Positions 741-43,215 of a DNA stretch of 47,274 nt are shown here, in pieces. This DNA comes from Minisyncoccota bacterium (GTDB taxonomy: Bacteria; Patescibacteriota; Minisyncoccia; UBA6257; 2-01-FULL-56-20): NCBI GenBank assembly GCA_035541415.1, contig DATKNI010000036.1, positions 1-47,274 on the forward strand, read 5' to 3'. The translations under genes were made by a program, and so were the position numbers. Within the stretch, counting starts at the first letter, position 1. Every line of letters starts with the position of its first letter. A model generated the notes under the pieces. It saw nothing but the letters and a program-made list of their open reading frames with translations, was not told where the DNA came from and ran no database searches.

Positions 741-812
741 TCCGCGATAGCTCAATGGTAGAGCGGCGCCCTGTTAAGGCGATGGTTCCAGGTTCGAGTC
801 CTGGTCGCGGAG
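741..812 (+). tRNA. tRNA-Asn (GTT)
   Basis: Acceptor stem TCCGCGA/TCGCGGA, D arm GCTC..GAGC, anticodon loop CTGTTAA (GTT at 773-775), T arm CCAGG-TTCGAGT-CCTGG, discriminator G; CCA not encoded. Confidence 0.97.
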
Positions 813-2887: not shown

Positions 2888-2930
2888 CCCGCCCGGCAAA
2901 ATCAATTTGCCAAGGCGGGCTTTTTATTTT
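2888..2930 (+). terminator. Rho-independent terminator
   Basis: CCCGCC.GGCAAA / TTTGCC..GGCGGG followed by CTTTTTATTTT. Confidence 0.7.
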
Positions 2931-2947
2931 GATCAGGTAGCAATATG

Positions 2948-2975
2948 AAAAGGGCCAGGATATTGCTCCTGGCCC
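2948..2975 (-). terminator. Rho-independent terminator for the PHP gene
   Basis: GGGCCAGGA-tattgc-TCCTGGCCC with an A-run on the + strand left side. Confidence 0.6.
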
Positions 2976-2987
2976 CGTCAATCAGCC

Positions 2988-4121
2988 TCATTCAACTCGC
3001 GCCATTGGCGCAAGCGATGACTGGGAAAACAGCGGCGCAATCGGACGGGCGAGGACGTTGACGGATCTCAAAACGCCAAGCGTCACGTTGGTGGTTGCAA
3101 TCATACGCGAGTGGCTCTTGGCCACCATATCCGTCACCGGGCGGGTAACGCCGTCGGGACAATGATAGAACACGCGGTCGTGCCAATGGACGCGCCCCGC
3201 GAGTTCCGGATAATCCGCGGTAATCGTTTCGGCGTTTGTGGTGTAACGGACCACGAGAGGCTCGCGGTATTGGGGCATGAGGACGATCCGGCTCTTTTTT
3301 TCTTTTCTGATTTCGGAAGCAAAGTCGTCGAATGTTTCCGCATTGGTAACATTGATCGCGCCGTTCGGTTCAAACCCGTGCCGATCCCCTCCCGCCACGA
3401 GCGGCAGGCCAAAATCGTTCGCAATCGCGAAAACGCGCTGGTTCACCGACCACGGCTGCAGGCCATTGATCTCGAGGGCGTGGACATAGCTCCCGTAGGT
3501 TCTCAAAAAATCGTACACGAGCGACGCGTGAATCTCCCGGCCGATTCTTCCCTGGTCCACAAGCGGATGATTGAGCACGATAAGCGAGTTCGGAAGCGAA
3601 TCAATTTCTGCGAGCGCGTGCCGCAACGCCGCGGCGTCGCCGGGATTCGCGGTCACATTCTTCACCATCGCCAGATAATTGCTTGCTTCGGCTTTGGGAA
3701 GATGATGGACGCCAACGTGGAAAATCGCCGACTCATACGGCACGGTCCACTCGAGCGAGACGATGTCATCGCATCCGGCTATTTCATCGTGATCGGTGAT
3801 CGAGACAAGCGCCTGCATGCCGTGCCGGGCGATCTGCTCGGTTTCAAGCGCATACGCCGCCTCGGGCGAGACCGGCGAGGTCCAATATCCGCGGTCATAA
3901 TCGAGCGGCGTCTTCCATTTTTTCAAAAAGGACGCCTCAAGACGCCGCAAGAGGCCCGTTAAAATGCGCGACCGCGCGAAAGTGCCGGGAAGAAATCCAA
4001 GTCCCTCTTTGGAATTCCACGTGTGTCCATGAAGCGACACGCCTGTTGCAAGGCGCCAATCGTCGCGATCATCCCATGCAGAATGGAATGTCGTCTCCGC
4101 GGTATCCCGCTTAAGAGCCAT
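2988..4121 (-). CDS. PHP-family metal-dependent phosphoesterase-like protein
   Basis: Motifs SLHGHT, ITDHD, HVGVH, LNHP, LEING, GGDRHG. Confidence 0.75.
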   Translation of the reverse strand: MALKRDTAETTFHSAWDDRDDWRLATGVSLHGHTWNSKEGLGFLPGTFARSRILTGLLRRLEASFLKKWKTPLDYDRGYWTSPVSPEAAYALETEQIARHGMQALVSITDHDEIAGCDDIVSLEWTVPYESAIFHVGVHHLPKAEASNYLAMVKNVTANPGDAAALRHALAEIDSLPNSLIVLNHPLVDQGRIGREIHASLVYDFLRTYGSYVHALEINGLQPWSVNQRVFAIANDFGLPLVAGGDRHGFEPNGAINVTNAETFDDFASEIRKEKKSRIVLMPQYREPLVVRYTTNAETITADYPELAGRVHWHDRVFYHCPDGVTRPVTDMVAKSHSRMIATTNVTLGVLRSVNVLARPIAPLFSQSSLAPMARVE

Positions 4122-4157
4122 ATTTCTCTATTATACAAAATCACCCTGCGCGGCGGA

Positions 4158-4970
4158 TCATCCCCGGAACCACCGGCTGAACTGACGGAACAGGCTTTCC
4201 GATTCTCGAGCGCCAATCAGGCGCTTGATCTCGGGAATCTTGAGCGTGGCGGCACGGTACCCATGCGCGGCAATCTCGCGCCCCTTTTGAAAGTCCGACG
4301 ACGTGTACTCGTCGAGGCGCGGAACGATCATGATGTCGCCGTCGCCCGGCGGAACATCGTATCGGGACATAATCCGAATCGATTTTTCCATCACGTCCAG
4401 CATATTTTTTGGCATTTCGTGCGACATCCAATGCGTGAGGTTGACGCCGATGCGGATGTCGGCGCCCATTTCGGCGAGTCCCGACATCGGGACATTTTCC
4501 ACGATCCCGCCGTCAACAAAACATTTATCCCCGATCATGACTGGCGTAAAAATAATGGGGATGGCCGCGCTTGCGCGCACCGCCGCAAAAACGCTCCCGC
4601 TGCGGAAGACAACTTTCTCTCCGTTTCCGACGTCGGTCGCAACGATGGCGAGCGGCATATCGGCTTTCTCGATGCGGCGATCGCCGCCCAAAACATCCTC
4701 GAGAACGTTTGCCAGCGCCTCGTTTGAAATGATGCCGAGCTTTGACGGCAGGAATTTTGAAATAGCCCGCCAGTTTAACTGTTCCGCGGCGGACTGCATT
4801 TTTTCTATGGAGACGCCGAAGGCGTAGCATGCCGCGACGACCGCTCCGGCGCTCGTGCCCGCGATGCAATCAATGGGAATGCCGTGGTCGGCAAAACTTT
4901 GCAGGACGCCGAGATGCGCATTGCCGAGAGCAGAACCGCCTCCAAGCGCCAGTCCGATTTTCTTGGCCAT
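4158..4970 (-). CDS. Patatin-like phospholipase (RssA/NTE family)
   Basis: GGGSALG, GTSAG (catalytic Ser) and DGG motifs. Confidence 0.92.
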   Translation of the reverse strand: MAKKIGLALGGGSALGNAHLGVLQSFADHGIPIDCIAGTSAGAVVAACYAFGVSIEKMQSAAEQLNWRAISKFLPSKLGIISNEALANVLEDVLGGDRRIEKADMPLAIVATDVGNGEKVVFRSGSVFAAVRASAAIPIIFTPVMIGDKCFVDGGIVENVPMSGLAEMGADIRIGVNLTHWMSHEMPKNMLDVMEKSIRIMSRYDVPPGDGDIMIVPRLDEYTSSDFQKGREIAAHGYRAATLKIPEIKRLIGARESESLFRQFSRWFRG

Positions 4971-5043
4971 GCATTCATTATAATCCAGAATGATTGACAG
5001 AGCCTCTCTTTATTGGTAACTAAAAAGTAGTAGGAGGTCCGCT

Positions 5044-5412
5044 ATGGGACATGTGATGAAGGCTCCTATGGACGGCCTGGTCGAAAAATTCATTGCATTT
5101 ACCAAGGTCAGGGCCTATTTCCTCTGGAAAGAACGGGTGGAAAAAGGCCTGCCCGGAACGCCGCTCGGCGACTGGCTTGCGGCGCGCAAGTATATCCGGG
5201 AAACATTTCCCTGGCTCGACGATCATCCTGATGGGAATTTTATTCTCAAACCTATGCTCTACGAGCCCGACATCGACGCGGCGCTCTGTTCGGTCTGCGG
5301 ACACTGCCTCAATCAAGGCGAGCTCTTGAAAGGGAGTGTGCAATGCGACTGTTGCGGCGCCATCATTGGACTCTATCGGGATTTACCCCGAAATAACCTT
5401 GCCCATCCTTAG
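5044..5412 (+). CDS. Hypothetical protein: DUF2934-like N-terminus plus C-terminal CxxC/CxxC zinc ribbon
   Basis: SD AGGAGG at 5032-5037; RAYFLW...G....DWLAA; CSVC...CDCC. Confidence 0.7.
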   Translation: MGHVMKAPMDGLVEKFIAFTKVRAYFLWKERVEKGLPGTPLGDWLAARKYIRETFPWLDDHPDGNFILKPMLYEPDIDAALCSVCGHCLNQGELLKGSVQCDCCGAIIGLYRDLPRNNLAHP

Positions 5413-5434
5413 CTATGAGGATGGGCGCTTTTTA
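5401..5434 (+). terminator. Rho-independent terminator
   Basis: GCCCATCCT...AGGATGGGC then GCTTTTTA, overlapping the stop at 5410-5412. Confidence 0.7.
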
Positions 5435-5463
5435 TTGACTAATGATATTTTCCATGATAAAAT
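5435..5463 (+). promoter_or_regulatory. Sigma70 promoter
   Basis: TTGACT - 17 nt - TAAAAT with TGA extension. Confidence 0.7.
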
Positions 5464-5506
5464 ATCTCTTGGAAATATTGATTTAAAAATACGAAAGGAG
5501 AAGGTC

Positions 5507-6055
5507 GTGACCTGGACAATAATTCTTTGGTGGACGCTCATTGCGTTTGGTATCGTTGCTTGTCTGTCGGGCATCAAACTCATCGCTCATATCTACGTCC
5601 GCCATCAGAATTTGCGGATCAAGAGCATCCTGCACGTCAACCTGTTTGAATGTGCCTCGTGCGAAACTCCCGATGAATATTGGGCGATGATACGCAGACA
5701 GTATAAAGAGCACGATCAGCTACTCCGACGACGGGTGCTGCGTTTTGCCGTCGAGTCGCTCCCGCCTCTCGATGAAACACAGTTCAGAGATGCATGTTCC
5801 GGACTGGAAAAGGTGATCATGCGTCCGCGAACCTTGATCACGATTTACGAACGGAAAGATTTGAAAGTGTCCATATTCTGGCCCATCGTCAGAAAGGTCG
5901 TCACCGATCGCACGATTTTGATTGTGGCGCCGGATATGCTGTCCCTTTCATACAACATCTCCAACCCACCCGAGGCGCTCGTTGCGGACATAAAAGACAT
6001 GTTCGAAGCGAGGGTTAGCATCTCCAATCTCGATTGGGACGCTAAACTATCGTGA
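5507..6055 (+). CDS. Hypothetical protein with an N-terminal TM helix (182 aa)
   Basis: Start reassigned to GTG 5507 behind SD AAGGAG and the promoter; the track's 5336 start would run through the terminator. Confidence 0.65.
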   Translation: MTWTIILWWTLIAFGIVACLSGIKLIAHIYVRHQNLRIKSILHVNLFECASCETPDEYWAMIRRQYKEHDQLLRRRVLRFAVESLPPLDETQFRDACSGLEKVIMRPRTLITIYERKDLKVSIFWPIVRKVVTDRTILIVAPDMLSLSYNISNPPEALVADIKDMFEARVSISNLDWDAKLS

Positions 6056-6086
6056 GAACCGTCCGCGCCGAACGCGGGCGCCATGC

Positions 6087-6120
6087 ATCGCCGTTCCTAA
6101 CGGAGCGGCGATTTTTTATT
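6087..6120. terminator. Terminator between convergent genes
   Basis: ATCGCCGTTCC-taac-GGAGCGGCGAT plus T-run. Confidence 0.6.
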
Positions 6121-6691
6121 CTCTGCTCTTCCCGCCGGTGCGATATAAGTACATGATGACGAGCGACATGCAGAGGTGCCACACGGGGAAAATAAACTGC
6201 GGGATGAAGCCGAAAATTTCGAACGTGATGATAATGATGCTGCCCACCGTTCCCGCCGTGATCGCAAAGAGGAACATGCCGCGGATCATGTCGAATGGGA
6301 AAAAGAAAATGCGGATGCCCAAGGAAAGCCCGAGCGCCCAGATGCATCCGCCCACAAAGCACGCGACGTACACGGCGGATAGGGCATTCTCGGAACTGTA
6401 CGCGGCAAAGCTCACAAAGCCATTCATGCCGAGCAGCCATTGCGCCTCAAGGACCGCCGCATAATATGCCGCAACCGAAACGACGATGAATCCAACGAGT
6501 TTCCAAACGATCGGTTCTTTCAAAACAGCCGGGCCGAACGTTCCGAATGCTCGTTTTGAAAACACGACGGCGAGCGTCGCCCCGAAAATCAATCCGGGGG
6601 CGTACACCCATGATCCCGGCCAATACGTCACGATCGCACTTGTCAAAAGTCCGGAAGCGAATCCCCATACCAGAAACCGAGAATTGTTCAT
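6116..6691 (-). CDS. Hypothetical polytopic membrane protein (~6 TM)
   Basis: 191 aa with several hydrophobic segments. Confidence 0.8.
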   Translation of the reverse strand: MNNSRFLVWGFASGLLTSAIVTYWPGSWVYAPGLIFGATLAVVFSKRAFGTFGPAVLKEPIVWKLVGFIVVSVAAYYAAVLEAQWLLGMNGFVSFAAYSSENALSAVYVACFVGGCIWALGLSLGIRIFFFPFDMIRGMFLFAITAGTVGSIIIITFEIFGFIPQFIFPVWHLCMSLVIMYLYRTGGKSRE

Positions 6692-6756
6692 GCGGGTGGT
6701 GCGAGTGGTTTGTTGTAATGCGCGGCTTGGTGCAGTCGATCGGGATCTATTTGTTA

Positions 6757-8946
6757 TTAGTATAGCAGTATTGGCTTTGCTCCAATCGTCACGGTGCCGC
6801 CGCTCACCGTGCAGGCGCTCCCGTCAACCGTCGAGCAGTTCTTGAACCCGTCGGCAGAAACGGTTGCCGGCGTGTCCGCGGAGTTCCATTTAATTTCTTC
6901 CGATACGCCTGCGGACGATGTGAGTGAGCACGTGTAATACGAACCGGATACCGGGCACGGATTTGATTTGGCAAACGACGATCCGACGAGCCATGATTCC
7001 ACGGTGCCATAGGCTTGGCCGGATTCGAGCTCGATGTTTGGATGCTCATTTAGCGAGCCGAATGAGTCGCCTTGATTTCCCCACTGGTACCAATAGTAGC
7101 GGGTAACCCCGTTTGCGGCGACGAGAATATACGACCGCGAGACGAAAGCTGCCATGTTATCCAAACACGTTTGCGAAAATGGCGGGACGTCGCTCGCGGG
7201 GCAGCCCGTGATGATGCTGTTCCGGCCCCAGCTCGATTCCGTGTCGATAAGCGGCAAGGATCCAGCGCCGCTCTGCTGCATTGCGGCGAACATCTTGGAG
7301 ATGAGCGAGACAATGCCTTCTGGATCGGGACTGCCGAGATAGGTATGGAACGTGACGCCGTCCGCAACTGAAGCGCCGGAGATCGTCGAGCCGTTCACAA
7401 CGATAGTTGTCGTGAGATAATATTTCATGCCGTCCTGCGGATTCGTGGTTGTGTAGATATTTTTGGTAAGGAGCGCATTCTTGCAGTTGCAGGTATCCGG
7501 CGTGAGAACGACGGCGCTCGGATCGAACTGCTTGATGATCGTGCGCGCGTCATACGCCATGCGCACGAGCTGCTCAGCCGTGCTGACCCAGAACTGCTTG
7601 TTATTTACTTCGTTCCAAACCTCAAAATATTTGATGTGCTCGCCGGTCTGATTGAGGTGCTGCATGAGCGCCGTCACAAAATCCTTAAAATGCTGGTCGG
7701 TCCCCGTGCCGTCTGCCGCAACGTCGCTTGGCGCATCGCATTCGCCGCCGGTTTTGACCGGCGCCGGCGTCGGTTCGGCGCACGAGGTATCACCCGGGTT
7801 CGAACTCGCCCAGTTTGGATCGCCGCCGAAGGTATAAAGCACGGTCTGCCCGTTCGCCGCGGCTTGATTCACCAATCCGTCGAACGTTGCCCATTTATAG
7901 GTGCCTTCAGAAGGTTCAATCTGATCCCACCGCGTGGCCGTATCCCACATCCGCAGCGAACCAAACGGAACCGGCACCGGTTGCGCGGTCGGCGGCCACG
8001 GCGTCGCCATGTCGTGCACGTTCAGGCTGAAGAAGTCGGCTTGGATTCCTGGACCGCTACTCGCGCTCTTCACCGTGAGTACGAGCGTCTTTGAATCCAT
8101 CCCTGCGGAATTCGTCGCGCTGATCGTTATATTCGATGTCTGGGCTGCCGAAGGCGTCCCCGAAATAGTGGCGGTATTGGCATCGAACGAGAGTCCTGCC
8201 GGCAAACCTTGCGCCGCATAGGTGCAACCCGACGAGCAATTGGTCGCCGTGATGGTGTAGGTGAACGGACTTCCCACCACGCCCGATGCCGTGAGCGCGC
8301 TCGTGATGGCCGGCGGCTGGACGGAGGTCACGCCGCATACCGCGATGCATGATGAAAGCGTGGAGAACGATCCGCCGGACCCGGCAGCCGAACAGCTGTT
8401 ATTTACGCAGTTATACGTCTGCGGAGGAGGCGGGCCAGAACCGCCGCTCGCGCCGTGATACAAAAATTCGATGCAATAATATGGCTCATCGCACGAGGAA
8501 AGCCCTTGCGCGTTGTAGTTCAGAAAATCCGATGGCGGCACATAATTTTTGAAAACATCCGTGCTCGAACTCTCAAGTTTTGCGGCGATCAAATATGATG
8601 TGCCGCTCGCGTTCACGCCGTAATAATACGTTGCGCCGGAATTTGCAAATGGATCGTTCGGCACCGAATTGACATTGATGGCCCGCGATCCCGTGAGCGC
8701 GGCAGTGAGTGCGCTCCAGGTATACGCGCCGCTCGGCCCGCCAGCGCAATTTGCCTGGCCGGGATAGAATCCGCATAGCGCGAAATACACTTCGAGGTCG
8801 GTTGAAACCTGGGTCAGATCCGTAACGCGCCGCTCGTCGCGCGAACCTGTTTGCGGCTTTGAGAGGCCGACGAGGACAATGCCCGAAAGCACCGCAATGA
8901 TGGCGACGACCACAAGAATCTCAACGAGAGAAAATCCTCTTTTCAC
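6757..8946 (-). CDS. Type IV pilin/pseudopilin fused to an Ig-like domain and a clan GH-A (GH39/GH5-like) glycoside hydrolase
   Basis: GTG start; KRGF|SLVEILVVVAIIAVL prepilin motif; VPNDP; GLPAGLSFD..TATISGTP Ig repeat; RMWDT..RWDQIEP, FEVWNE (E at 7609-7611), DTESSWG (E at 7237-7239). Confidence 0.85.
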   Translation of the reverse strand: MKRGFSLVEILVVVAIIAVLSGIVLVGLSKPQTGSRDERRVTDLTQVSTDLEVYFALCGFYPGQANCAGGPSGAYTWSALTAALTGSRAINVNSVPNDPFANSGATYYYGVNASGTSYLIAAKLESSSTDVFKNYVPPSDFLNYNAQGLSSCDEPYYCIEFLYHGASGGSGPPPPQTYNCVNNSCSAAGSGGSFSTLSSCIAVCGVTSVQPPAITSALTASGVVGSPFTYTITATNCSSGCTYAAQGLPAGLSFDANTATISGTPSAAQTSNITISATNSAGMDSKTLVLTVKSASSGPGIQADFFSLNVHDMATPWPPTAQPVPVPFGSLRMWDTATRWDQIEPSEGTYKWATFDGLVNQAAANGQTVLYTFGGDPNWASSNPGDTSCAEPTPAPVKTGGECDAPSDVAADGTGTDQHFKDFVTALMQHLNQTGEHIKYFEVWNEVNNKQFWVSTAEQLVRMAYDARTIIKQFDPSAVVLTPDTCNCKNALLTKNIYTTTNPQDGMKYYLTTTIVVNGSTISGASVADGVTFHTYLGSPDPEGIVSLISKMFAAMQQSGAGSLPLIDTESSWGRNSIITGCPASDVPPFSQTCLDNMAAFVSRSYILVAANGVTRYYWYQWGNQGDSFGSLNEHPNIELESGQAYGTVESWLVGSSFAKSNPCPVSGSYYTCSLTSSAGVSEEIKWNSADTPATVSADGFKNCSTVDGSACTVSGGTVTIGAKPILLY

Positions 8947-10055
8947 TGTTTTATTGTACTATGCCCCGACGCGCGGAACCAGGGAGTAAACGGCGATGCG
9001 GCATAGAACTGCATCATGAGCGAAGCGACCTTCGGCACGCCGTTCGCGATATTCGGATGCGTATAGTCGGCGGTGTTGTAATCAGAAGGAATCCACGCGA
9101 GGCCGTCGCTCCGGGGCGAATTCCCGTCGGCCCAGAAATAGGGACCCCATGCGATCCACGGCGCAACGGCATAACTCAAATCCCCTGCAACGGGATCAAT
9201 CGGAGCTCCGGCAATCTGATCAATCTGTGCGGCGACGAGCCACTTGTTTGCAAATCCATATTCATAGGCAAACGGTTCGGGATTCAAATTTGTGGTTGCG
9301 TAGCCGGCGTAGATGCGGGTGTGTACGAACATCTGCTTCACATTAGGGAACTGCATCTTTGCAAAACGCGCAATGTTCCCCACCTCGCGCTCATAGATGC
9401 AGGCGTCGATCGCCGAATTGGCCGTGCATTGCGTGCTCGACGCCAGGGAATATTTCGGTTGCGGATCGGCGTCTTTAAAGAGAATCACCTGCACCTGTTT
9501 CGCCGATAAACCTTCGGACGACAGGATCTGCACGCACGCGGCATAGTTGCCCTTGCTGTCATCAAGCCATTTTGCCGCGACTTGCGAGCCTTGCGCGCAA
9601 TCAACGATCACGAGATTTGTATGGTTTACGGTTGGGTCGTGCTCAGTCTGGTAGATAAAACTTCCCGGATTGCAATCCTGATTCGTCCGCGGAAGCATAT
9701 TACAAAGCTCAATCGTCCAATTTGACATCCCGATGCCCACCACGACGATTTTCCCCGCGGGCGACGGATTGCCATTCACGTCAAGCGGCTGGATTTCGCT
9801 TGCAAACCGCATCCCATCCGCAGCATGAGCCGCCGGCATGGTGTTCGTGCCGTCGTACAAAAATCCGTCGAAAGCGCCCAAATATTTCTCGCCCGGAGCA
9901 AAATCGGTGAGCGGCACGAGATTGGGAATGCTCGAACTGCTCGCGAGGAGCGTCGCCGGATGCACGCCGGCCGTCCGCGCATAGTGCCGCACCGCGACAA
10001 ATGCCGCAATGCCCAGGATCACGACTCCCGCCGCGATGAGAATATATTTTTTCAT
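8943..10055 (-). CDS. Membrane-anchored SGNH/GDSL-fold hydrolase (carbohydrate esterase-like)
   Basis: N-terminal TM helix; GMSN block I (Ser at 9723-9725); C-terminal DYTHP (DxxH); stop overlaps the pilin start (GTGA). Confidence 0.65.
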   Translation of the reverse strand: MKKYILIAAGVVILGIAAFVAVRHYARTAGVHPATLLASSSSIPNLVPLTDFAPGEKYLGAFDGFLYDGTNTMPAAHAADGMRFASEIQPLDVNGNPSPAGKIVVVGIGMSNWTIELCNMLPRTNQDCNPGSFIYQTEHDPTVNHTNLVIVDCAQGSQVAAKWLDDSKGNYAACVQILSSEGLSAKQVQVILFKDADPQPKYSLASSTQCTANSAIDACIYEREVGNIARFAKMQFPNVKQMFVHTRIYAGYATTNLNPEPFAYEYGFANKWLVAAQIDQIAGAPIDPVAGDLSYAVAPWIAWGPYFWADGNSPRSDGLAWIPSDYNTADYTHPNIANGVPKVASLMMQFYAASPFTPWFRASGHSTIKQ

Positions 10056-10139
10056 GGAAACGCCAACTATACCTTTAACTATACCAAACGAGCGCCGCTC
10101 GCCTCGCCTTCAAACATCATTTTCTGCTATCATCTTTCC

Positions 10140-11183
10140 ATGGAATTTTCTTATGCCTACCACCTTCCCGAGGAATATATCGCCAAGCGACCGGCGACGC
10201 CACGCGATTCGTCAAAGCTTTTTGTTTTTGATACGGCGCGCGACGAAATTACGCTCGATCGGTTCTCAAATCTTGGCGAATACATTCCTCCCCATTCGCT
10301 TCTTGTTTTGAATAACACGAAGGTCGTTCCGGCGCGCACGATCCTCAAAAAAGAAACGGGCGGCAAGGTGGAAGTCCTCTTTTTGGTGAACGAGTGGCGC
10401 AACGGCGGCGCGATTCCGGCCATCGTCGATCGCAAGATTACGGTTGGCGCAACGGTATCGCTCACCACCAATAAAACATTTACGGTGACGAAACAGAACG
10501 AAAATATTTTTTATTTGAAGCCCAACTTCCCTGCCGCGCAGCTCTTTGCCGCACTCCGGAAAAGAGGCGCCATGCCAATCCCGAAATACATAAAAGATTC
10601 GCGGATGAGCGAAGCGGACCTCCGCAGGCGGTATCAGAGCGTGTTCGCAAGCGCATCGGCCTCGGTTGCGGCGCCGACGGCGTCGCTCCACCTCACGGAT
10701 CGGCTCCTCGCAAAGCTTGCACAGCGCGGCGTGCGGCAAACGTTCATCACCCTCGACGTTGGTCTCGGCACCTTCGCTCCCGTGAAAGATGAAAATATTA
10801 TGAAAAATAAATTGCATGAGGAATTTTTGAATATCCCTCGCAACGCCGCGGCGCTCATTCGAAGCTGCAAAAAAGACCACAACCCCATCGTCGCCGTCGG
10901 GACGACCGTCGTTCGCGCGCTCGAGTCGCAAGCTTCAGCCATCATGAAGGCGCGCGGACCAATCTCGGGCACAACGGACATTTTCATCCATCCTCCCTAT
11001 CGATTCGCAATCGTTGACGCGATGATCACCAACTTCCACCTGCCCGAATCCTCGCTCATGATGCTCGTCCAGGCATTCATTGCCCAGAAGGGATCCTCAA
11101 AGAGATTGACGGAGCTGTACGAATTTGCCATGAAACATGTGTTTCGCTTTTATTCATTCGGCGATGCCATGCTCATAACCTAG
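10140..11183 (+). CDS. queA: S-adenosylmethionine:tRNA ribosyltransferase-isomerase
   Basis: YHLPEEYIA..P..PRDSSKL, NNTKVVPAR, AAPTA, GTTVVRALES, TNFHLPESSL, FYSFGDAM; start moved to ATG 10140. Confidence 0.95.
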   Translation: MEFSYAYHLPEEYIAKRPATPRDSSKLFVFDTARDEITLDRFSNLGEYIPPHSLLVLNNTKVVPARTILKKETGGKVEVLFLVNEWRNGGAIPAIVDRKITVGATVSLTTNKTFTVTKQNENIFYLKPNFPAAQLFAALRKRGAMPIPKYIKDSRMSEADLRRRYQSVFASASASVAAPTASLHLTDRLLAKLAQRGVRQTFITLDVGLGTFAPVKDENIMKNKLHEEFLNIPRNAAALIRSCKKDHNPIVAVGTTVVRALESQASAIMKARGPISGTTDIFIHPPYRFAIVDAMITNFHLPESSLMMLVQAFIAQKGSSKRLTELYEFAMKHVFRFYSFGDAMLIT

Positions 11184-11273
11184 CAAATCTCGACGCAAGA
11201 AGCCGACCCGGCCCATGTGGATAAGGATCTCTAATAGCATGAAAAGCTGATATAATAAGGGAAAGATCCTCCC

Positions 11274-11651
11274 ATGTGGAAATACCTCGCAATCATCCTT
11301 ATCGCTCTTGTTCTCGTCGTGGCGATTTTTAAGTTTTCGCTTATCACGAACGACTCGCAAAGCTATTGCGCCTTTGGGCCGTTTGCGAAACATTGCCACG
11401 AGAATGTTTCATATGACGATCTGTACCAAACTTTGCGGGGCATTACGCGCGCCGTGACGCCGAATATCGCGGTCATGGCCTTTCTTTTTGTAGCCATTAC
11501 ACTTTTTGGAACAGTGAAGCAAGCTGCCACGTCTCCGCTTGTCGTCCGATTCGTCGTCCGGCAAGCGCCGCTTAATCTTGCGTCCGCAAAGAAAGATATT
11601 TCCCGCTGGATAGAGCTCCACGAAGGAGGAAGTCCGTCCAACCGCCGCTAG
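11274..11651 (+). CDS. Hypothetical membrane protein (2 TM)
   Basis: 125 aa with two hydrophobic segments; TGA-TATAAT at 11248-11256 upstream. Confidence 0.65.
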   Translation: MWKYLAIILIALVLVVAIFKFSLITNDSQSYCAFGPFAKHCHENVSYDDLYQTLRGITRAVTPNIAVMAFLFVAITLFGTVKQAATSPLVVRFVVRQAPLNLASAKKDISRWIELHEGGSPSNRR

Positions 11652-11736
11652 GTTGCGCTGAACCGTTTTGCGGTTCTTTTGCGCAACCGATATCGGCGGT
11701 TTTTGTTATTTCCTGAAAATTTGTTTGAGCAACGCC

Positions 11737-14070
11737 ATGAAGCAACACCTCGGACAGAATCAAATCAAAACGATTCCAAAAATCAGAAGGGATAAATTTA
11801 TTATCTTTTGTATTGTCGCGTATGCGATGTACCTTGGCTTTGCGTTCGTGTTCAATGCTCACGCCGACCCGCCGTCCAGTCCATTTGCTCCGGGAGCGAC
11901 GCTCGATCCCGGTTGTTCGCCGACCAGCACGAACTGCACGGTTAACCCGCCGCTGTTTAGCTCGACGACACTTCCCATCGGTGGGCTTCTTTTTGTAAAC
12001 GACGCGAGCGGCACGATTACGGCAAACACATCGAGCCTTTACTGGAACAGCGCATCATCAACGCTCCTCGTGAACGGGACACTTTTGACCTCCGGCATCG
12101 CGCTTTCTTCTCTCACCTCTTCCATTCTGGTGACGGACGGCAATGGCAACGTGGGCGCGTTAAGCATCGGATCCGGACTCTCGCTTTCTTCCGGAACGCT
12201 TACCGCAACGGGAGGCGGCGGCGGAAGCGGGCCGCTCGCCATCACGACATCAAGCATCAGTCTCGTCGACGAACTCGATTCCACGACCACCCAAATCACC
12301 ATAAAGAACACGACCGCGACCGGAACGCTCTATTCGTACACCCTGCCGGGAAACACGCTGGGGACAAATGGGGATTTCATCCGCATCAATATGTTCGGGT
12401 ATATTTTTAATAATTCCGGATCAAATCGAACCGTGACGCTTCGATTGTTCTATGGAGGCAAACAGTTCTTTGCCGTGCCGTCGGGGAACATCGCGGCAAA
12501 CGCCGCGACCTCCGGCTGGTCGGCGACCTTCTATATCGCAAATACGTCGTCATCCCAAGCCCAGGTCGGCGAATTCAACGCCCAAGCAAGCCCGGGAAGC
12601 GGGACGGTGAGCGTCACCTGGGGCGGAGGCGGCATTTCATCAGTTGATTCAACCGTCGACCAAAATGTGCAGGTCCAGGCAAGTTTAAGCACCGCGTCGA
12701 CGACCGTGTGGCTGGCTGTGACGAGCGTAAAAACAGAACTGGTCACGGGCAACCAAGTCATCGTCACGAACGTGACTGGGACCGTGAGCGCGGTGACTGC
12801 CACAGGAACTGATTTTTATGTGCCGTATTTCACCGACACAACAACGCTTTCGGAAACGTCATCGATTTTTTATGCGAGCTCCACGGGATTCATCGGCATC
12901 GGCACCACGACGCCGTCGCAGATGCTTACCGTGAACGGCAAAATCAAAGCCGTCGGCGGATTCAACGGCCAATGTCTTTCGAGCGGCGGATTCAACGCCA
13001 CATCTTCCGGTTCATGCAATATGGACGTCGCCGAAGTCTATCCAACATTCGAACCGACTGAGCCAGGCGACGTCGTAGCCATCCCGCCCTACGCGACCGG
13101 AACCGATATCGTTGCCATCGGCCGTTCGCACGGCACCGCGAATGAGACCGTCATCGGCGTCGTGTCAACAAATCCCGGTCTCGTCTTTAATAATGGAGAA
13201 ACTTCAATCGCCGGCGAGAACGACGACCTCACCACGTCGACGCAAGCGGCCATCGCCCTGGTGGGCCGGGTGCCGGTAAAAATATCTTTGGAGAACGGGC
13301 CGATCGCTCCGGGCGATTCGCTTGCCGCATCCACGGATCTTCCCGGCGTTGCCGTAAAAGCGATCGGTCCCGGCCGCGTGATCGGCGAGGCGCTCCAGGC
13401 GTTTGACGAAGCGGATGCACATTCGAGCAATGCGAGCGGGACGCCCCAGATTTTAGTCTTCATTAATCCGCACTGGGATCCAGGAACTCCATCCTCTTCA
13501 TTTTCCATCAATGCCTCGCTTTCACAATTCGTCCAGACTCTCCAAAGCGCCTTGGAGAATTTGGGCATCACCATCAATAACGGCATCGTCACAATAAAAA
13601 ACCTCGTCGTTGAAAAACTTACTGCCGGCGAAGTGGACGCAGACAAAATCTGCCTGAGCGGCACGTGCGTCACCCAAGGCGAGTTGAGTGCGATGTTGGA
13701 AAACCATGTTGCAACCTCTTCCCCAGACACCGCCCCGGCGGCGGCTCCACCGGAAGATTCGACCACAACGATCAGCGCACCAGTCGCATCATCATCAATT
13801 CCGACGTCCACACCCGTATCTGATCTAACTCCGATCGAGACAACCTCGACAACCTCGACCGCCTCAACGACTCCCGCATCTGCTCCCGATCCTGATCTTT
13901 CAACGTCTCTCCCTCCACCTCCACCGCCGTCACCTCCGCCACCACCGCAGCAGCAACAACCTCCTCCGCCTTCTGAGACTTCGCCGTCTTCTTCTCCTTC
14001 TACGCCTCCGCCGCCGCCTCCGTCTTCTCCTTCTCCCTCTCCAAGCGACGCATCGTCAACAACAAATTAA
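11737..14070 (+). CDS. Exported tail-fibre-like protein with a putative intramolecular-chaperone (peptidase G2/S74-like) domain and a Pro-rich tail
   Basis: Signal/TM segment (..FNAHA-DP); GIGTTTP motif; DVAEVY..EPGDVV..VIGVVSTNPG..ALVGRVPVK..GPIAPGD; start uncertain (11737 chosen). Confidence 0.75.
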   Translation: MKQHLGQNQIKTIPKIRRDKFIIFCIVAYAMYLGFAFVFNAHADPPSSPFAPGATLDPGCSPTSTNCTVNPPLFSSTTLPIGGLLFVNDASGTITANTSSLYWNSASSTLLVNGTLLTSGIALSSLTSSILVTDGNGNVGALSIGSGLSLSSGTLTATGGGGGSGPLAITTSSISLVDELDSTTTQITIKNTTATGTLYSYTLPGNTLGTNGDFIRINMFGYIFNNSGSNRTVTLRLFYGGKQFFAVPSGNIAANAATSGWSATFYIANTSSSQAQVGEFNAQASPGSGTVSVTWGGGGISSVDSTVDQNVQVQASLSTASTTVWLAVTSVKTELVTGNQVIVTNVTGTVSAVTATGTDFYVPYFTDTTTLSETSSIFYASSTGFIGIGTTTPSQMLTVNGKIKAVGGFNGQCLSSGGFNATSSGSCNMDVAEVYPTFEPTEPGDVVAIPPYATGTDIVAIGRSHGTANETVIGVVSTNPGLVFNNGETSIAGENDDLTTSTQAAIALVGRVPVKISLENGPIAPGDSLAASTDLPGVAVKAIGPGRVIGEALQAFDEADAHSSNASGTPQILVFINPHWDPGTPSSSFSINASLSQFVQTLQSALENLGITINNGIVTIKNLVVEKLTAGEVDADKICLSGTCVTQGELSAMLENHVATSSPDTAPAAAPPEDSTTTISAPVASSSIPTSTPVSDLTPIETTSTTSTASTTPASAPDPDLSTSLPPPPPPSPPPPPQQQQPPPPSETSPSSSPSTPPPPPPSSPSPSPSDASSTTN
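13905..14045 (+). repeat. Low-complexity Pro/Ser/Gln-coding repeats
   Basis: CCT/CCA/CCG/TCT runs encoding PPPPPPSPPPPPQQQQPPPP. Confidence 0.85.
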
Positions 14071-14199
14071 TTGCGGCGCGTCATCCGGCAAACTTGCTAA
14101 ATTGCTCGTTATTGAGAAGAATGAAACTAGTAAGCTTTGCAATTACATTCGTACCTCTCCTTCACGTCTTCACATCATTCCATCAGAAAGGATGGCTGC

Positions 14200-14961
14200 A
14201 TGCAGATTTGGACCGAAGAAGCGATTGACGCATACAATACGGAACTCGCCTGCTGCAGCCCTCGCGAACGAATCGCTTGGGTCCTCGACAGGTACAAGAA
14301 GCGGGTCTTGATCAACTGCGGGATCGGCGTCGGAAGCGTTGTCCTCATGAAGCTCATCGCCGACGCGGCCGCCAACATCAAGGTCGTTCCCGATATCGTC
14401 ACCATTGATACCGGGATCCGGCTCGCGGGAACGCGGCGGCTCATCAAGAGCCTCCGGCACAAGTTCCGGCTTCCGATACAAGCCCTGCGGCCGTCTGCGG
14501 AGGATCTCGCGACCGTGAGACACCTTCCCAACCTCGCCATCTTCACCGGGCCTCAGGGCCTGGAAGAGCGGCTGCGGTGCTGCAACGTGCGGAAAGAAGC
14601 CCCGCTTCGGCGGAAGCTCAAACAGTATGACGCCTGGATGAACAGCCTCGTGCCCGACGGCGCAACCACCGACCGAACCACCGTTCCATTTGTCCAGATC
14701 GACGAAAAGCATGGCGGCATCCTTAAATTCAATCCGCTTGCCGACCACACCAAACAGGACTTCTGGGACTTCATCCGAAGCCATCGCCTTCCCTACCACC
14801 CGGCATTCGACCTGGGATTCGGCAGCGTCGGTTGCGGCGGATGCTGTACGAGTTCCGGCGAGGACCGCAATGGCCGATGGCCGTGGGAGAAAAATCGCAG
14901 CGGCGCAACGTGCTTTATTAATGACGTGCAGAAGAAGCCAATGGATACCGACAGCGCATGA
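14200..14961 (+). CDS. Divergent PAPS/APS reductase family (CysH-like) protein
   Basis: SD AAAGGA at 14186-14191; IDTG, RCCNVRKEAPL, KFNPLA, SVGCGGC, RNGRW motifs. Confidence 0.8.
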   Translation: MQIWTEEAIDAYNTELACCSPRERIAWVLDRYKKRVLINCGIGVGSVVLMKLIADAAANIKVVPDIVTIDTGIRLAGTRRLIKSLRHKFRLPIQALRPSAEDLATVRHLPNLAIFTGPQGLEERLRCCNVRKEAPLRRKLKQYDAWMNSLVPDGATTDRTTVPFVQIDEKHGGILKFNPLADHTKQDFWDFIRSHRLPYHPAFDLGFGSVGCGGCCTSSGEDRNGRWPWEKNRSGATCFINDVQKKPMDTDSA

Positions 14962-14996
14962 TGAATTGCATGCGCTGTTTTTTTTATGAAATGGCG

Positions 14997-16538
14997 TTAC
15001 ACGAGCGGCTCAGAGCTCGCCACCCAGCGGGCAAGCATATCGCCCGACATGGGCCGGGCAACGCGGAATCCCTGGACGCCGCTGCAGCCGAGTTCGCGAA
15101 GCAGGTTTAATTGCTCCTTTGTTTCCACGCCTTCTCCCACAACCTTGAGGTTGAGGTTCTGTCCGAGCGCGACGATCGTCTGAATGATGGCGCGGTCTTC
15201 TTTGCTCTTCAAACTGCGCCGCACAAATGATTGGTCGATTTTCAATTTATCCACGGAAAGATCTTTCAAATATCCGAGCGACGAATATCCCATGCCGAAA
15301 TCGTCGATGGCAATCGTAATGCCAAGCTTGTGGAACGCCTTGAACCGGTCTTTCGCAAGGTCGATGTTTTCCATCGCAAGGCTTTCCACAATTTCAAATT
15401 CAAGCAGGGTCGGCGAAATTTCAAACTCATCGAGCATGCTGCGGAGCTTTTCCATAAAAGTGCGGTCGGTGAATTCCCGGGTTGAAAGGTTGACGGCGAC
15501 GCGGATGCGCGAAACGCCCTGCCTCTGCCAGGTCCTCTGGCTCTGCAGGACGCCCCGCAGGGTGCTTTCGCCAAGCATGCGCATGATGCCGTGATCGTAC
15601 GCGAGCGGTATGAAGTCGTGCGCTTCGATGAGTCCCTGCTCCGGATGCCGCCAACGGAGCAGGGCTTCGGCATTCATGATGCGGTTCGTCGAAAAATCAA
15701 CAACCGGCTGGTAATAAATTTCCATCTGCTCCGAAGCGACCGCGTGCCGCAGCTCCTGCACCACCTGCATGCGCGACGACGCTTCGCGATTCATCATCGC
15801 CCGATAGAAACGAAAGTGATTGCGGCCCGCATGCTTGGCTTGGAGGAGCGCGACATCGGAATTCGCGACGAGCGTCGAGAGCTCGCGGCCATCGCGCGGG
15901 AACATGGCAACGCCCATGCTGGTCGAAAGGAAAAGGGTTTTTGATTCGATCGACATCGGAGATTCAAGAGCGGTCACGACGCGCTTCAAAATATTCGAAA
16001 CATCGGTTTGCGATTTCACCTTATGAAGGACGACGAGAAATTCGTCGCCTCCGAGGCGCGCAAAAAGGCTTCCCGGCGGGAGCACTTCGTCAACGCGCCC
16101 GGCAAACTCCTTGAGCAGCATGTCGCCGACCTGATGGCCGTAGACGTCGTTGATCTGCTTGAAGCGATCGAGGTCGAAATAAACAACCGCCATTTTCTGA
16201 TCGTCCCGGAATGCATTTTGGAAAACTTCGGCGAGCCGCTCCTCAAGCAATTTTCGGTTCGGCAATCCGGTCAGCGGATCATGAAGCGCCTGATGCCGGA
16301 TGCGCTCCTCGATGATCTTGCGGTCGGCGATTTCGTTCTCCAATTCGCCGATCCGCTCGCGGATGACCTCGATCATCACCTGGATGCCGGTTGCGAGTTC
16401 GGCAAATTCCTCGTTGTCCTCAGGAATGGCAACGTCCTCGGAATACTCGCCGATGGAGGCCTTCGCGAAAATAGTGCGGAACGAATCGAGGCGTTCTTTT
16501 ACGTACTTCTTATAGGAGTCGAGTGATTCTATTGCCAT
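14997..16538 (-). CDS. Cytoplasmic HAMP-GGDEF-EAL diguanylate cyclase/phosphodiesterase
   Basis: HDPLTGLPNR, DLDRFKQINDVYGH..GD, RLGGDEF; EALLRW, VNLS, DDFGMGYSSL, LKIDQSF, EGVE; HAMP-like N-terminus without a TM helix. Confidence 0.95.
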   Translation of the reverse strand: MAIESLDSYKKYVKERLDSFRTIFAKASIGEYSEDVAIPEDNEEFAELATGIQVMIEVIRERIGELENEIADRKIIEERIRHQALHDPLTGLPNRKLLEERLAEVFQNAFRDDQKMAVVYFDLDRFKQINDVYGHQVGDMLLKEFAGRVDEVLPPGSLFARLGGDEFLVVLHKVKSQTDVSNILKRVVTALESPMSIESKTLFLSTSMGVAMFPRDGRELSTLVANSDVALLQAKHAGRNHFRFYRAMMNREASSRMQVVQELRHAVASEQMEIYYQPVVDFSTNRIMNAEALLRWRHPEQGLIEAHDFIPLAYDHGIMRMLGESTLRGVLQSQRTWQRQGVSRIRVAVNLSTREFTDRTFMEKLRSMLDEFEISPTLLEFEIVESLAMENIDLAKDRFKAFHKLGITIAIDDFGMGYSSLGYLKDLSVDKLKIDQSFVRRSLKSKEDRAIIQTIVALGQNLNLKVVGEGVETKEQLNLLRELGCSGVQGFRVARPMSGDMLARWVASSEPLV

Positions 16539-17071
16539 TCAATGGTGTAGCCATGGACCTTGCTCTCGATGATCCGGGGCGTGATCGCGCCCGTAAGCCC
16601 GCAGTATTCCATCCACGCCTGAAAGAGACCTTTGAAGTGATCGATGGGATAATCGGTGTTGCTCATCACGAGATAAACGGTTTTGGGACCCAATTCTTCG
16701 CTCGCAAATTTAACGCCCTGGAACACATGGGCGCCGAGATAACGCGCCCGGAGCAGGATAAGCCGATAATTATTTTTGAAAAACGGGAGGGTGAGCCGCC
16801 CGAGCGGCGTTTGTGAAAAATTTTTAAAATGGACTTTCCCCGCTTCGTACGCAATCCTGTCTTCCGGAATCGGATGGTCCGCGAGGATGCGAGTGGCGCA
16901 TTCAATAAGCCGTGATTCGTCCTTGACGGGAATCGTGTCCGAGACTTTGAAGGCGAGTGATTTCCCGTAGCAGGCCTCGAGTGCGCGCACGCCTTCTTCT
17001 CCCTTTGCGCGAAAAACGGCTTGCACGTGGCTCTTCATAAAAATACCTTTTATCGATGGCTCGAGTGACAT
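16529..17071 (-). CDS. DUF2378/TIGR02265-like (V4R/HNOB-like fold) protein
   Basis: IKGIF, P..D..RL...A..IL, AYEAG..HF..F.QT.LGR, G...V.L.......P..HF.GL, Y.IEW pattern; 10-nt overlap with the DGC/PDE gene. Confidence 0.65.
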   Translation of the reverse strand: MSLEPSIKGIFMKSHVQAVFRAKGEEGVRALEACYGKSLAFKVSDTIPVKDESRLIECATRILADHPIPEDRIAYEAGKVHFKNFSQTPLGRLTLPFFKNNYRLILLRARYLGAHVFQGVKFASEELGPKTVYLVMSNTDYPIDHFKGLFQAWMEYCGLTGAITPRIIESKVHGYTIEWQ

Positions 17072-17106
17072 GCAGGTTTATCGTAGCACAACTCTGAAAT
17101 TGAAAG

Positions 17107-43170: not shown

Positions 43171-43215
43171 ATATTTCATTCTAGCAAATAGAAATAAGGC
43201 AGTCTGGAGCAAAAA

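Follow-up and report, generated by a model that had tools for sequence, protein, structure and literature searches.

A predicted SGNH-fold esterase of an unannotated family overlapping the gene for a pilin-borne PslG-like glycosidase in a Minisyncoccota bacterium

Esterases and glycoside hydrolases (GHs) are a familiar productive combination in glycan degradation. De-acylation is also paired with the cleavage of an exopolysaccharide in PelA and PgaB, in which a metal-dependent N-deacetylase of carbohydrate esterase family 4 (CE4) and a GH166 or GH153 domain are fused in one protein, encoded in biosynthetic operons. Among the serine esterases of the SGNH fold, those of the SASA/CE6 type (PF03629; for example NanS, the Arabidopsis protein At4g34215, 2apj, and the C. 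acetobutylicum protein 1zmb) carry a G-x-S-N nucleophile motif, while those found in phage tail fibers and tailspikes (SFP21A Gp09, 9lna, and matches in the viral structure library BFVD) are deployed outside the cell against the surface glycans of another cell. PslG is a GH39 endoglycosidase of the Psl system of P. aeruginosa. Type IV pilins can in turn be modular: Raynaud et al. (2021; PMC8179133) describe in their main text modules grafted behind a class III signal peptide, with PF05345 (He_PIG) one of the 15 domains most often grafted and with examples from the candidate phyla radiation (CPR) listed; the modules named there include lectin, vWA and peptidase domains and no glycoside hydrolase, the word "hydrolase" being absent from that main text. 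Here we describe a locus with two genes that recall these systems, in a stretch of 47,274 nucleotides (nt) from a Minisyncoccota bacterium (GenBank assembly GCA_035541415.1, contig DATKNI010000036.1, positions 1 to 47,274), which we call the window. The stop codon of one open reading frame (ORF A), for a predicted exported SGNH-fold serine esterase, overlaps the start of a second one (ORF B), for a pilin-like protein with a PslG-like glycosidase module (Table 1).

The model of its structure and the conservation of its catalytic motifs support the identification of ORF A as a serine hydrolase with an SGNH fold, one of a large family so far without annotation. This would be a new family of a known kind of enzyme, here placed beside a PslG-like modular pilin. 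As for the role of the pair, the explanation that we favor, with a fair degree of confidence, is that ORF A is an extracytoplasmic SGNH esterase coupled to the pilin-borne GH39-like enzyme, the two plausibly acting in sequence by de-O-acylation and glycosidic cleavage.

ORF A and its family

The AlphaFold2 model of ORF A, built on 40 homologs, had a predicted local distance difference test (pLDDT) score of 91.6 and a predicted template modeling (pTM) score of 0.85. A Foldseek search had been proposed in the initial annotation as a check of the SGNH fold, and the two libraries searched gave concordant answers. In the PDB the top 24 matches were all SGNH hydrolases (E 7e-5 to 7e-3, template modeling (TM) scores of 0.5–0.6 relative to the target). 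The best of them was PatB, and the others included EstL5, Cj0610c, Bacteroides acylhydrolases, sialate O-acetylesterases, a CE2 esterase, the SASA/CE6-type structures 2apj and 1zmb, GDSL lipases, TesA and phospholipase A1. In BFVD about a third of the top matches were nameless, and each of the others was an esterase or lipase of the SGNH/GDSL type or a phage tail protein. The strands of the model (102–109, 148–152, 188–194, 241–245 and 300–303) form a five-stranded parallel sheet in a three-layer alpha/beta/alpha arrangement, and the order of the elements matches that of the SGNH blocks: the first strand, Ser111 at the start of helix 111–117, strand 148–152 followed by a Gly-rich loop, strand 188–194 and, at the end, the Asp-x-x-His motif and the last helix. 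The best structural matches (EstL5, 8ik1; Cj0610c, 8gr2; PatB, 8tlb; TesA, 5tic) likewise have their Ser where strand 1 ends and their Asp-x-x-His before the last helix. Compared with the classical GDSL/SGNH enzymes, however, ORF A has only ca. 10–13% identity and no GDS motif, the Asn of block III is not conserved and the catalytic part is ca. 120 residues larger.

The motifs GMSN and DYTHP had been read from the start as the Ser and Asp-x-x-His motifs of SGNH enzymes, a reading that is borne out by the alignment of 117 homologs on which all the residue counts for ORF A are based. G109 and H333 were present in the 117 sequences, S111 and D330 in 116 and N112 in 109, while the residues around this putative triad were variable. 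The two motifs are far beyond chance. Many Trp and Tyr residues were also invariant across the homologs. In the block II loop (A154-x-G156-S157), the candidate site of the oxyanion hole, Gly was found at position 156 in 71 of the 117 and at position 157 in 90. When the family profile was aligned by hhalign with E. coli TesA, D330 and H333 fell on the Asp-x-x-His of the segment DDGIHPN, which we take to be the catalytic Asp154 and His157, and with E. coli NanS it was block II that aligned; both matches were short and had a probability of at most 2%.

ORF A has a single strongly hydrophobic stretch, at residues 4–22 (Kyte-Doolittle 19-residue mean 2.74), and its homologs bear signal peptides or lipoprotein leaders. 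The cysteines behave as pairs. C153 and C174 were both present in 67 homologs and both absent in 50, never occurring singly; C210 and C219 were both present in 67 and both absent in 49, with one exception; and C118 and C128 were found together in 110 of the 117. By these pairs two subgroups of the family can be told apart, one with six Cys and one with two. The hydrophobic N-terminal helix, the covarying Cys pairs, the leaders of the homologs and the fusions to surface domains described below indicate that ORF A is an extracytoplasmic enzyme, with three predicted disulfides. It had been called membrane-anchored in the initial annotation, of which the hydrophobic helix and the signs of export stand, whereas for the anchor itself a cleavable Sec signal peptide fits equally well.

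The family is large and widespread. A word-indexed search with ORF A retrieved 1,078 homologs, and a profile search over 1.84 billion representatives gave 3,488 clusters (50% identity) at E ≤ 1e-3 and 1,575 at E ≤ 1e-30. Almost all of the members are unnamed, the UniRef name of one of them (P0096) being "Lipolytic protein G-D-S-L family", and our literature searches found no paper on the family. In a scan of the whole GTDB, relatives of ORF A turned up in many phyla, with at least 575 species represented; the phyla found to contain the family, from soil and water, include Acidobacteriota, Gemmatimonadota, Planctomycetota, Myxococcota, Actinomycetota, Chloroflexota and Patescibacteria. Identities were of 40–58% across Patescibacteria, Terriglobia, Gemmatimonadota, Planctomycetota, Myxococcota and Micromonospora, with the gene standing nearly always alone among housekeeping genes. 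A shared substrate or frequent transfer might explain this conservation across phyla. Some members are fused to SLH, TIG, dockerin (in P0103), Ig-like, FG-GAP, DUF11, fn3 or PG_binding_1 domains.

Several other architectures were observed in the family. Tandem proteins with two copies of the domain are known from P0365 to P0373. In P0475 (1459 aa) the family domain lies at residues 600–920 within a giant surface protein with fn3, Big_7, Big_13 and PG_binding_1 domains, an architecture that is also that of a 1606-aa ORF of the window (38392..43212, minus strand) and of similar Paceibacterota proteins in a relative of the window (contig L093). One protein of the GH family of ORF B (P0153) and four of the esterase family (P0040, P0046, P0049 and P0052) have the Ig-like modules PF22073 (Cep192_D4), PF15780 (ASH) and PF22544 in common, which suggests that in other organisms the two types of enzymes may be displayed on similar surface scaffolds.

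The nearest known family is SASA. Matches to PF03629 were obtained for 8 of 40 homologs and for P0053, all of them sub-threshold (13.8–20.3 bits, against a gathering threshold of 24.8) and always in block II, where a segment "C/G-A-x-G-G-x...W" is the source of these recurrent weak matches; ORF A itself had no match to this model. ORF A shares with the SASA/CE6 enzymes the SGNH fold and the G-x-S-N nucleophile motif, in the form GMSN in ORF A and GQSN in a few members of its family. It differs from them in a much larger domain, a conserved N-terminal extension of 55 residues, long inserts, the three predicted disulfides and a full Asp-x-x-His. By these similarities the ORF A family would be a faint and distant relative of the SASA/CE6 O-acetylesterases, and not a member by the Pfam criterion.

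ORF B and the junction between the two genes

The initial annotation described the downstream gene as a pilin joined to a glycoside hydrolase, and both parts were recovered. The N-terminus, MKRG/FSLVEILVVVAIIAVL (the slash marks the predicted cut), has the basic leader, the Gly at −1, the Phe at +1, the Glu at +5 and the ca. 20 hydrophobic residues of a class III signal. A profile made from the C-terminal region of ca. 430 residues and 20 homologs matched XynB (1w91, E 7.7e-14) and PslG (E 5.8e-11) in the PDB. The segments VWNEVN and DTESSW of ORF B aligned with the WNE(P/V)N and (I)TE segments of XynB, with both Glu residues in register, and these segments of XynB presumably hold its acid/base and nucleophile Glu. 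E446 and E570 were invariant in the alignment of 21 sequences. The AlphaFold2 model of ORF B (pLDDT 90) had P. aeruginosa PslG as its best Foldseek match (E 1.4e-19, TM 0.69–0.73), followed by a Bacteroides GH39 enzyme and other members of clan GH-A. The match to the Pfam model of GH39 (PF01229) was below threshold (E 0.15, 11.3 bits vs. 26), and several families of clan GH-A matched weakly.

ORF B is thus comparable to PslG in its modeled structure and in the two catalytic Glu found in the profile match, and homologs of it have been named PslG by the Joint Genome Institute (JGI). It differs in having ca. 15% identity to PslG, a prepilin leader and a He_PIG domain, and in not being part of a psl-like operon. 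Its closest GH homologs (P0122–P0125, 55–57% identity) come from apparently Gram-negative genomes, with a BBP2 porin and ECF sigma factors as neighbors, and have N-termini made of Big_7, Big_13 or fn3 domains and no pilin. Among these proteins only ORF B has the pilin and He_PIG front end, which suggests that it could be the result of a module swap or an acquisition. ORF B resembles the modular type IV pilins in its class III signal and grafted modules, the GH module being the difference from those named in the main text of the survey by Raynaud et al. (2021). ORF B would be displayed on a pilus; among the window ORFs scanned we saw no prepilin peptidase or pilus assembly genes.

The overlap of the two genes as GTGA was confirmed. 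The TGA of ORF A (8945..8943) shares bases with the GTG of ORF B (8946..8944), giving an overlap of 4 nt, and no other start would leave the prepilin leader MKRG/FSLVE intact, because there is an in-frame TAG at 8961..8959. In the automatic gene call of the source contig ORF B begins at the GTG at 8913 (718 aa), by which both the overlap and the prepilin leader are lost; pilin-type proteins may be systematically mis-started in such genomes. The junction is not an assembly artifact, since it recurs, at 99.8% identity, in L099, an assembly that JGI made independently. Overlapping neighbors on the same strand are a minority arrangement, 2 of about 12 pairs in the 21-kb gene list of the source contig, and this is some evidence that the coupling is real and goes beyond mere compaction. 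Given the 4-nt overlap, co-transcription and translational coupling of ORF A and ORF B are the default expectation from the sequence. Between the two genes there is no terminator and no scored promoter, which favors co-transcription.

The initial annotation had also pointed to a TACAAT hexamer as a promoter of the pilin gene itself. The hexamer is where it was said to be, 6 nt before the GTG, and its role as an internal promoter was rejected: the window has 8 copies of TACAAT where 10.65 would be expected, which is chance level, and no −35/−10 pair was scored at the site. The divergent spacer between ORF A and queA is 84 nt long and contains two TATAGT hexamers; promoter scoring of this spacer gave no promoter-like pair. 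On the other side, 65 nt downstream of ORF B, ORF C had no Pfam match and is possibly a third gene of the unit.

Table 1. Position of the two genes, their predicted functional elements and the nearest downstream features in the window
Feature	Position	Strand	Remarks
ORF A	8943..10055	minus	370 aa, ATG start at 10055; predicted serine esterase, exported, with an SGNH fold; family unannotated
N-terminal hydrophobic helix of ORF A, residues 1–28	9972..10055	minus	Signal anchor or Sec signal peptide; helix 2–28 in the model
Block I of ORF A, G109-M-S111-N112 (GMSN)	9720..9731	minus	Ser111 predicted nucleophile; junction of strand 102–109 and helix 111–117
Block V of ORF A, D330-Y-T-H333-P334 (DYTHP)	9054..9068	minus	Predicted Asp and His of the triad; followed by C-terminal helix 339–353
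TACAAT hexamer	8953..8958	minus	Inside the 3' end of ORF A; chance level
GTGA overlap of ORF A stop and ORF B start	8943..8946	minus	Geometry of translational coupling
ORF B	6757..8946	minus	729 aa; predicted modular pilin with PslG-like GH39 glycosidase
Class III (prepilin) signal of ORF B, MKRG/FSLVEILVVVAIIAVLSGIVL	8872..8946	minus	Pfam N_methyl E 5.8e-6, TIGR02532 E 6.8e-7, both matching residues 2–25
He_PIG Ig-like domain of ORF B, residues 211–292	8071..8316	minus	Pfam PF05345 E 1.8e-13; preceded by a linker
GH39-like (beta/alpha)8 barrel and C-terminal beta-sandwich of ORF B, residues 300–729	6760..8049	minus	Profile and structure matches
Acid/base Glu446 of ORF B (predicted)	7609..7611	minus	Codon checked
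Nucleophile Glu570 of ORF B (predicted)	7237..7239	minus	Codon checked
ORF C	6116..6691	minus	191 aa, hydrophobic, apparently a membrane protein
Terminator-like hairpin	6087..6112	scored on plus	Just past the end of ORF C

A possible joint role and its alternatives

Transcription of the two genes would start upstream of 10055, and their translation would be coupled. ORF A would be exported via Sec, folded with its three disulfides and either tethered or released, its catalytic part of ca. 320 aa forming an enlarged SGNH fold behind the N-terminal signal or anchor helix. Ser111, placed where the helix after the first beta-strand begins, would be the nucleophile and would be activated by His333, itself oriented by Asp330, and the enzyme would act as an esterase, removing an ester-linked group, most likely O-acetyl, from an extracellular substrate that is probably a glycan. 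ORF B would be inserted by means of its class III signal, presumably cut between G4 and F5, with the Ig-like and GH39 modules exposed and perhaps mounted on a pilus or pseudopilus, and would cleave glycosidic bonds by a retaining mechanism with E446 and E570. Considering the GTGA coupling and the modular pilin encoded next to it, ORF A is probably made together with ORF B and both probably work outside the membrane. We infer their cooperation from this arrangement, and it is plausible that one O-acylated polysaccharide is attacked in sequence by ORF A and ORF B. Where the initial annotation had proposed an acetylated host polysaccharide, the substrate may just as well come from the environment (plant or fungal) or be the exopolysaccharide of a neighbor, or the two enzymes may have unrelated substrates.

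PelA and PgaB had been invoked in the initial annotation as precedents for such a pair. Their de-acylating domains are CE4 N-deacetylases and not SGNH O-esterases, so that the likeness is one of concept only. At the locus described here an SGNH Ser-esterase and a GH39-like enzyme are encoded as two proteins with no biosynthesis genes adjacent, and no CE4 domain was found in the Pfam scans of ORF A and its homologs, the modeled fold of ORF A being SGNH. The polysaccharide-utilization loci with carbohydrate esterases and GHs, and the esterases and depolymerases of phage tailspikes, may be closer functional analogies. To the esterases of phage tail fibers and tailspikes ORF A is similar in the fold only, having no fiber or spike domains, and the comparison is an analogy. 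One could go further and see in the pair a strain-specific surface kit of an episymbiont of the Paceibacterota, in which a tethered O-acetylesterase of an unrecognized carbohydrate esterase family would remove acyl groups from the exopolysaccharide of a neighbor or host and an "enzymatic pilin", with its PslG-like glycosidase carried on a type IV pilus, would then cut it, in analogy to the tailspike esterases and depolymerases. We consider this extended version doubtful.

Several results weigh against the proposed sequential action of an esterase and a glycosidase. With regard to the fold, comparisons of ORF A with Pfam, NCBIfam and the PDB, the latter both by phmmer and by a family-profile search, gave nothing significant. 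The TM-scores to solved SGNH structures are only moderate (0.5–0.6), and the low hhalign probabilities for TesA and NanS make these alignments hints only. The block III Asn is not conserved: ORF A has Asp197 at this position, and the 117 homologs include 53 with Asn, 37 with Asp and 15 with Leu; Asn112, beside the nucleophile and present in 109, might substitute for the block III Asn. With regard to the substrate, the case for a carbohydrate comes from the faint similarity to SASA, one dockerin fusion and a single GH neighbor, and the long members of the ORF A family, when scanned for fusions, had no carbohydrate-binding module and no catalytic domain of a carbohydrate-active enzyme (CAZyme). 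With regard to the pairing, in nine homolog neighborhoods with Pfam annotation there was no GH or other CAZyme in any of the nine, and in every sample that we examined the combination of ORF A and ORF B was unique to this genome. As for expression, only two sequencing runs carry the sequence, both of wetland-metagenome DNA, and no RNA run was found in which co-transcription could be seen.

The main alternative is that the adjacency is incidental and that ORF A is a stand-alone exported esterase with its own substrate, as its relatives evidently are in hundreds of other species, which in a compact genome only shares a transcript with the pilin-GH. We regard this as unlikely, though it is the strongest of the alternatives, and the neighborhoods of the family speak in its favor. 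The initial annotation had expected a conserved neighborhood and a co-occurrence with GH genes, and at the level of the family this expectation failed. A tblastn search with ORF B around 85 family loci found nothing beside the family gene except at the window's own locus, and a hidden Markov model of the GH domain detected a GH39-like ORF within 6 kb at none of the 83 other loci (0/83). When all the ORFs within 6 kb were clustered, no neighbor family was present at more than 7 of the 83 loci, and nothing but the family gene with its shadow ORFs formed clusters. The family genes stood among unrelated housekeeping genes in all nine annotated contexts, two of which (P0036 and P0060) are likely CPR genomes, also without a GH neighbor. 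Conversely, the closest GH homologs P0123 and P0125 had no esterase neighbor. A metagenome scan for close relatives returned the same organism (99.8%) and one homolog of 54% identity without GH. The genes of the window are in general tightly packed, too. On the other side, the 4-nt overlap belongs to a minority of the same-strand pairs, ORF A and ORF B both appear to be extracytoplasmic hydrolases, and an esterase with a GH is a combination well known to be productive on glycans. The pairing is a lineage-specific arrangement, tightly coupled and found in a single lineage.

ORF A could also be a GDSL-type lipase, a lysophospholipase or a broad esterase acting on lipids, for example those of a host membrane. 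This would fit the SGNH matches to EstL5, GDSL lipases, TesA and phospholipase A1, the "lipolytic" UniRef name of P0096 and the presence of a patatin-like phospholipase gene ca. 4 kb away. Yet the only recurrent Pfam similarity is to a carbohydrate esterase family (SASA), many Trp and Tyr are invariant, P0103 carries a dockerin and the immediate partner is a GH, and we give this possibility a rather low probability. Lower still is that of an extracytoplasmic O-acyltransferase of the PatB, AlgX or OatA-C type, adding acyl groups to a glycan. SGNH transferases and hydrolases have the same fold and triad, and the best PDB match of the ORF A model was indeed the peptidoglycan O-acetyltransferase PatB (8tlb, 7tlv, 7tjb). 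However, the Foldseek E-values for esterases were equivalent to those of PatB, and no acyl donor partner of the MBOAT or AT3 type was present near ORF A or in the nine homolog contexts, for which reason a transferase was rejected as the primary explanation. Finally, it is very improbable that ORF A is no SGNH enzyme at all but a non-catalytic binding or structural protein with coincidental motifs, as could be argued from the lack of a significant sequence match to any SGNH model and the unconserved block III, since fold searches of two libraries returned essentially only SGNH enzymes and the residues of the putative triad show little or no variation in 117 homologs amid variable positions.

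If the esterase activity and a glycan substrate of ORF A were confirmed, its family could be annotated, possibly as a new carbohydrate esterase family, and a name could be given to thousands of proteins now listed as "hypothetical". An exported esterase with a pilin-borne glycosidase would moreover be a testable handle on how CPR bacteria process or breach extracellular polysaccharides. As found, the esterase and the GH would form an ordinary operon of the CAZyme style, in one lineage only.

Genomic setting

The LepA protein encoded in the window was 79–88% identical to proteins of Candidatus Paceibacterota, Minisyncoccia and Patescibacteria. In the two closest relatives (LepA 86–88% identical, contigs of 0.83 and 0.91 Mb) gene order was conserved from the PMT glycosyltransferase to LepA and DivIC. 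One of them (L092) had a longer syntenic run, ThrRS-SerRS-Alr-PMT-DUF4012-LepA-DivIC, and in the other (L093) synteny began at Alr, with two extra genes ahead of DUF4012. Beyond DivIC the window has a block (ca. 2900..17100) in whose place both relatives have other, unrelated genes, and the absence of ORF A and ORF B from them refers to this syntenic position only. The block contains genes for a helix-turn-helix protein, a DUF2378 protein, a GGDEF-EAL protein, a PAPS reductase, two unknown proteins and QueA, followed by ORF A, ORF B, the membrane protein and a patatin-like protein. The nearest neighbors of the pair are QueA, unknown proteins, the membrane protein and the patatin-like protein, and there is no operon for the biosynthesis or export of an exopolysaccharide. 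The block looks like a strain-variable region without anomaly in guanine-plus-cytosine (GC) content: base composition gave no sign of horizontal transfer, the GC of ORF A and ORF B (0.54–0.58) being inside the range of the window (0.48–0.58).

Some other genes of the window may be mentioned. The patatin-like phospholipase gene (4158..4970, minus strand, E 5e-30) lies ca. 4 kb downstream of the A-B unit and adjoins the gene of a 377-aa protein without family; it is a candidate for a further secreted hydrolase of the same variable block. The GGDEF-EAL and DUF2378 genes (14997..16538 and 16529..17071, both on the minus strand) overlap by 10 nt, and genes of cyclic-di-GMP signaling are uncommon in the reduced genomes of CPR bacteria. 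An ORF of 800 codons on the plus strand of this block (11668..14070, called as 777 aa) had no Pfam match and ends in a long low-complexity C-terminal tail rich in Pro, Ser and Gln (PPPPPPSPPPPPQQQQPPPP...). A tRNA gene at 741..812 on the plus strand was the only Rfam match of the window at the gathering threshold.

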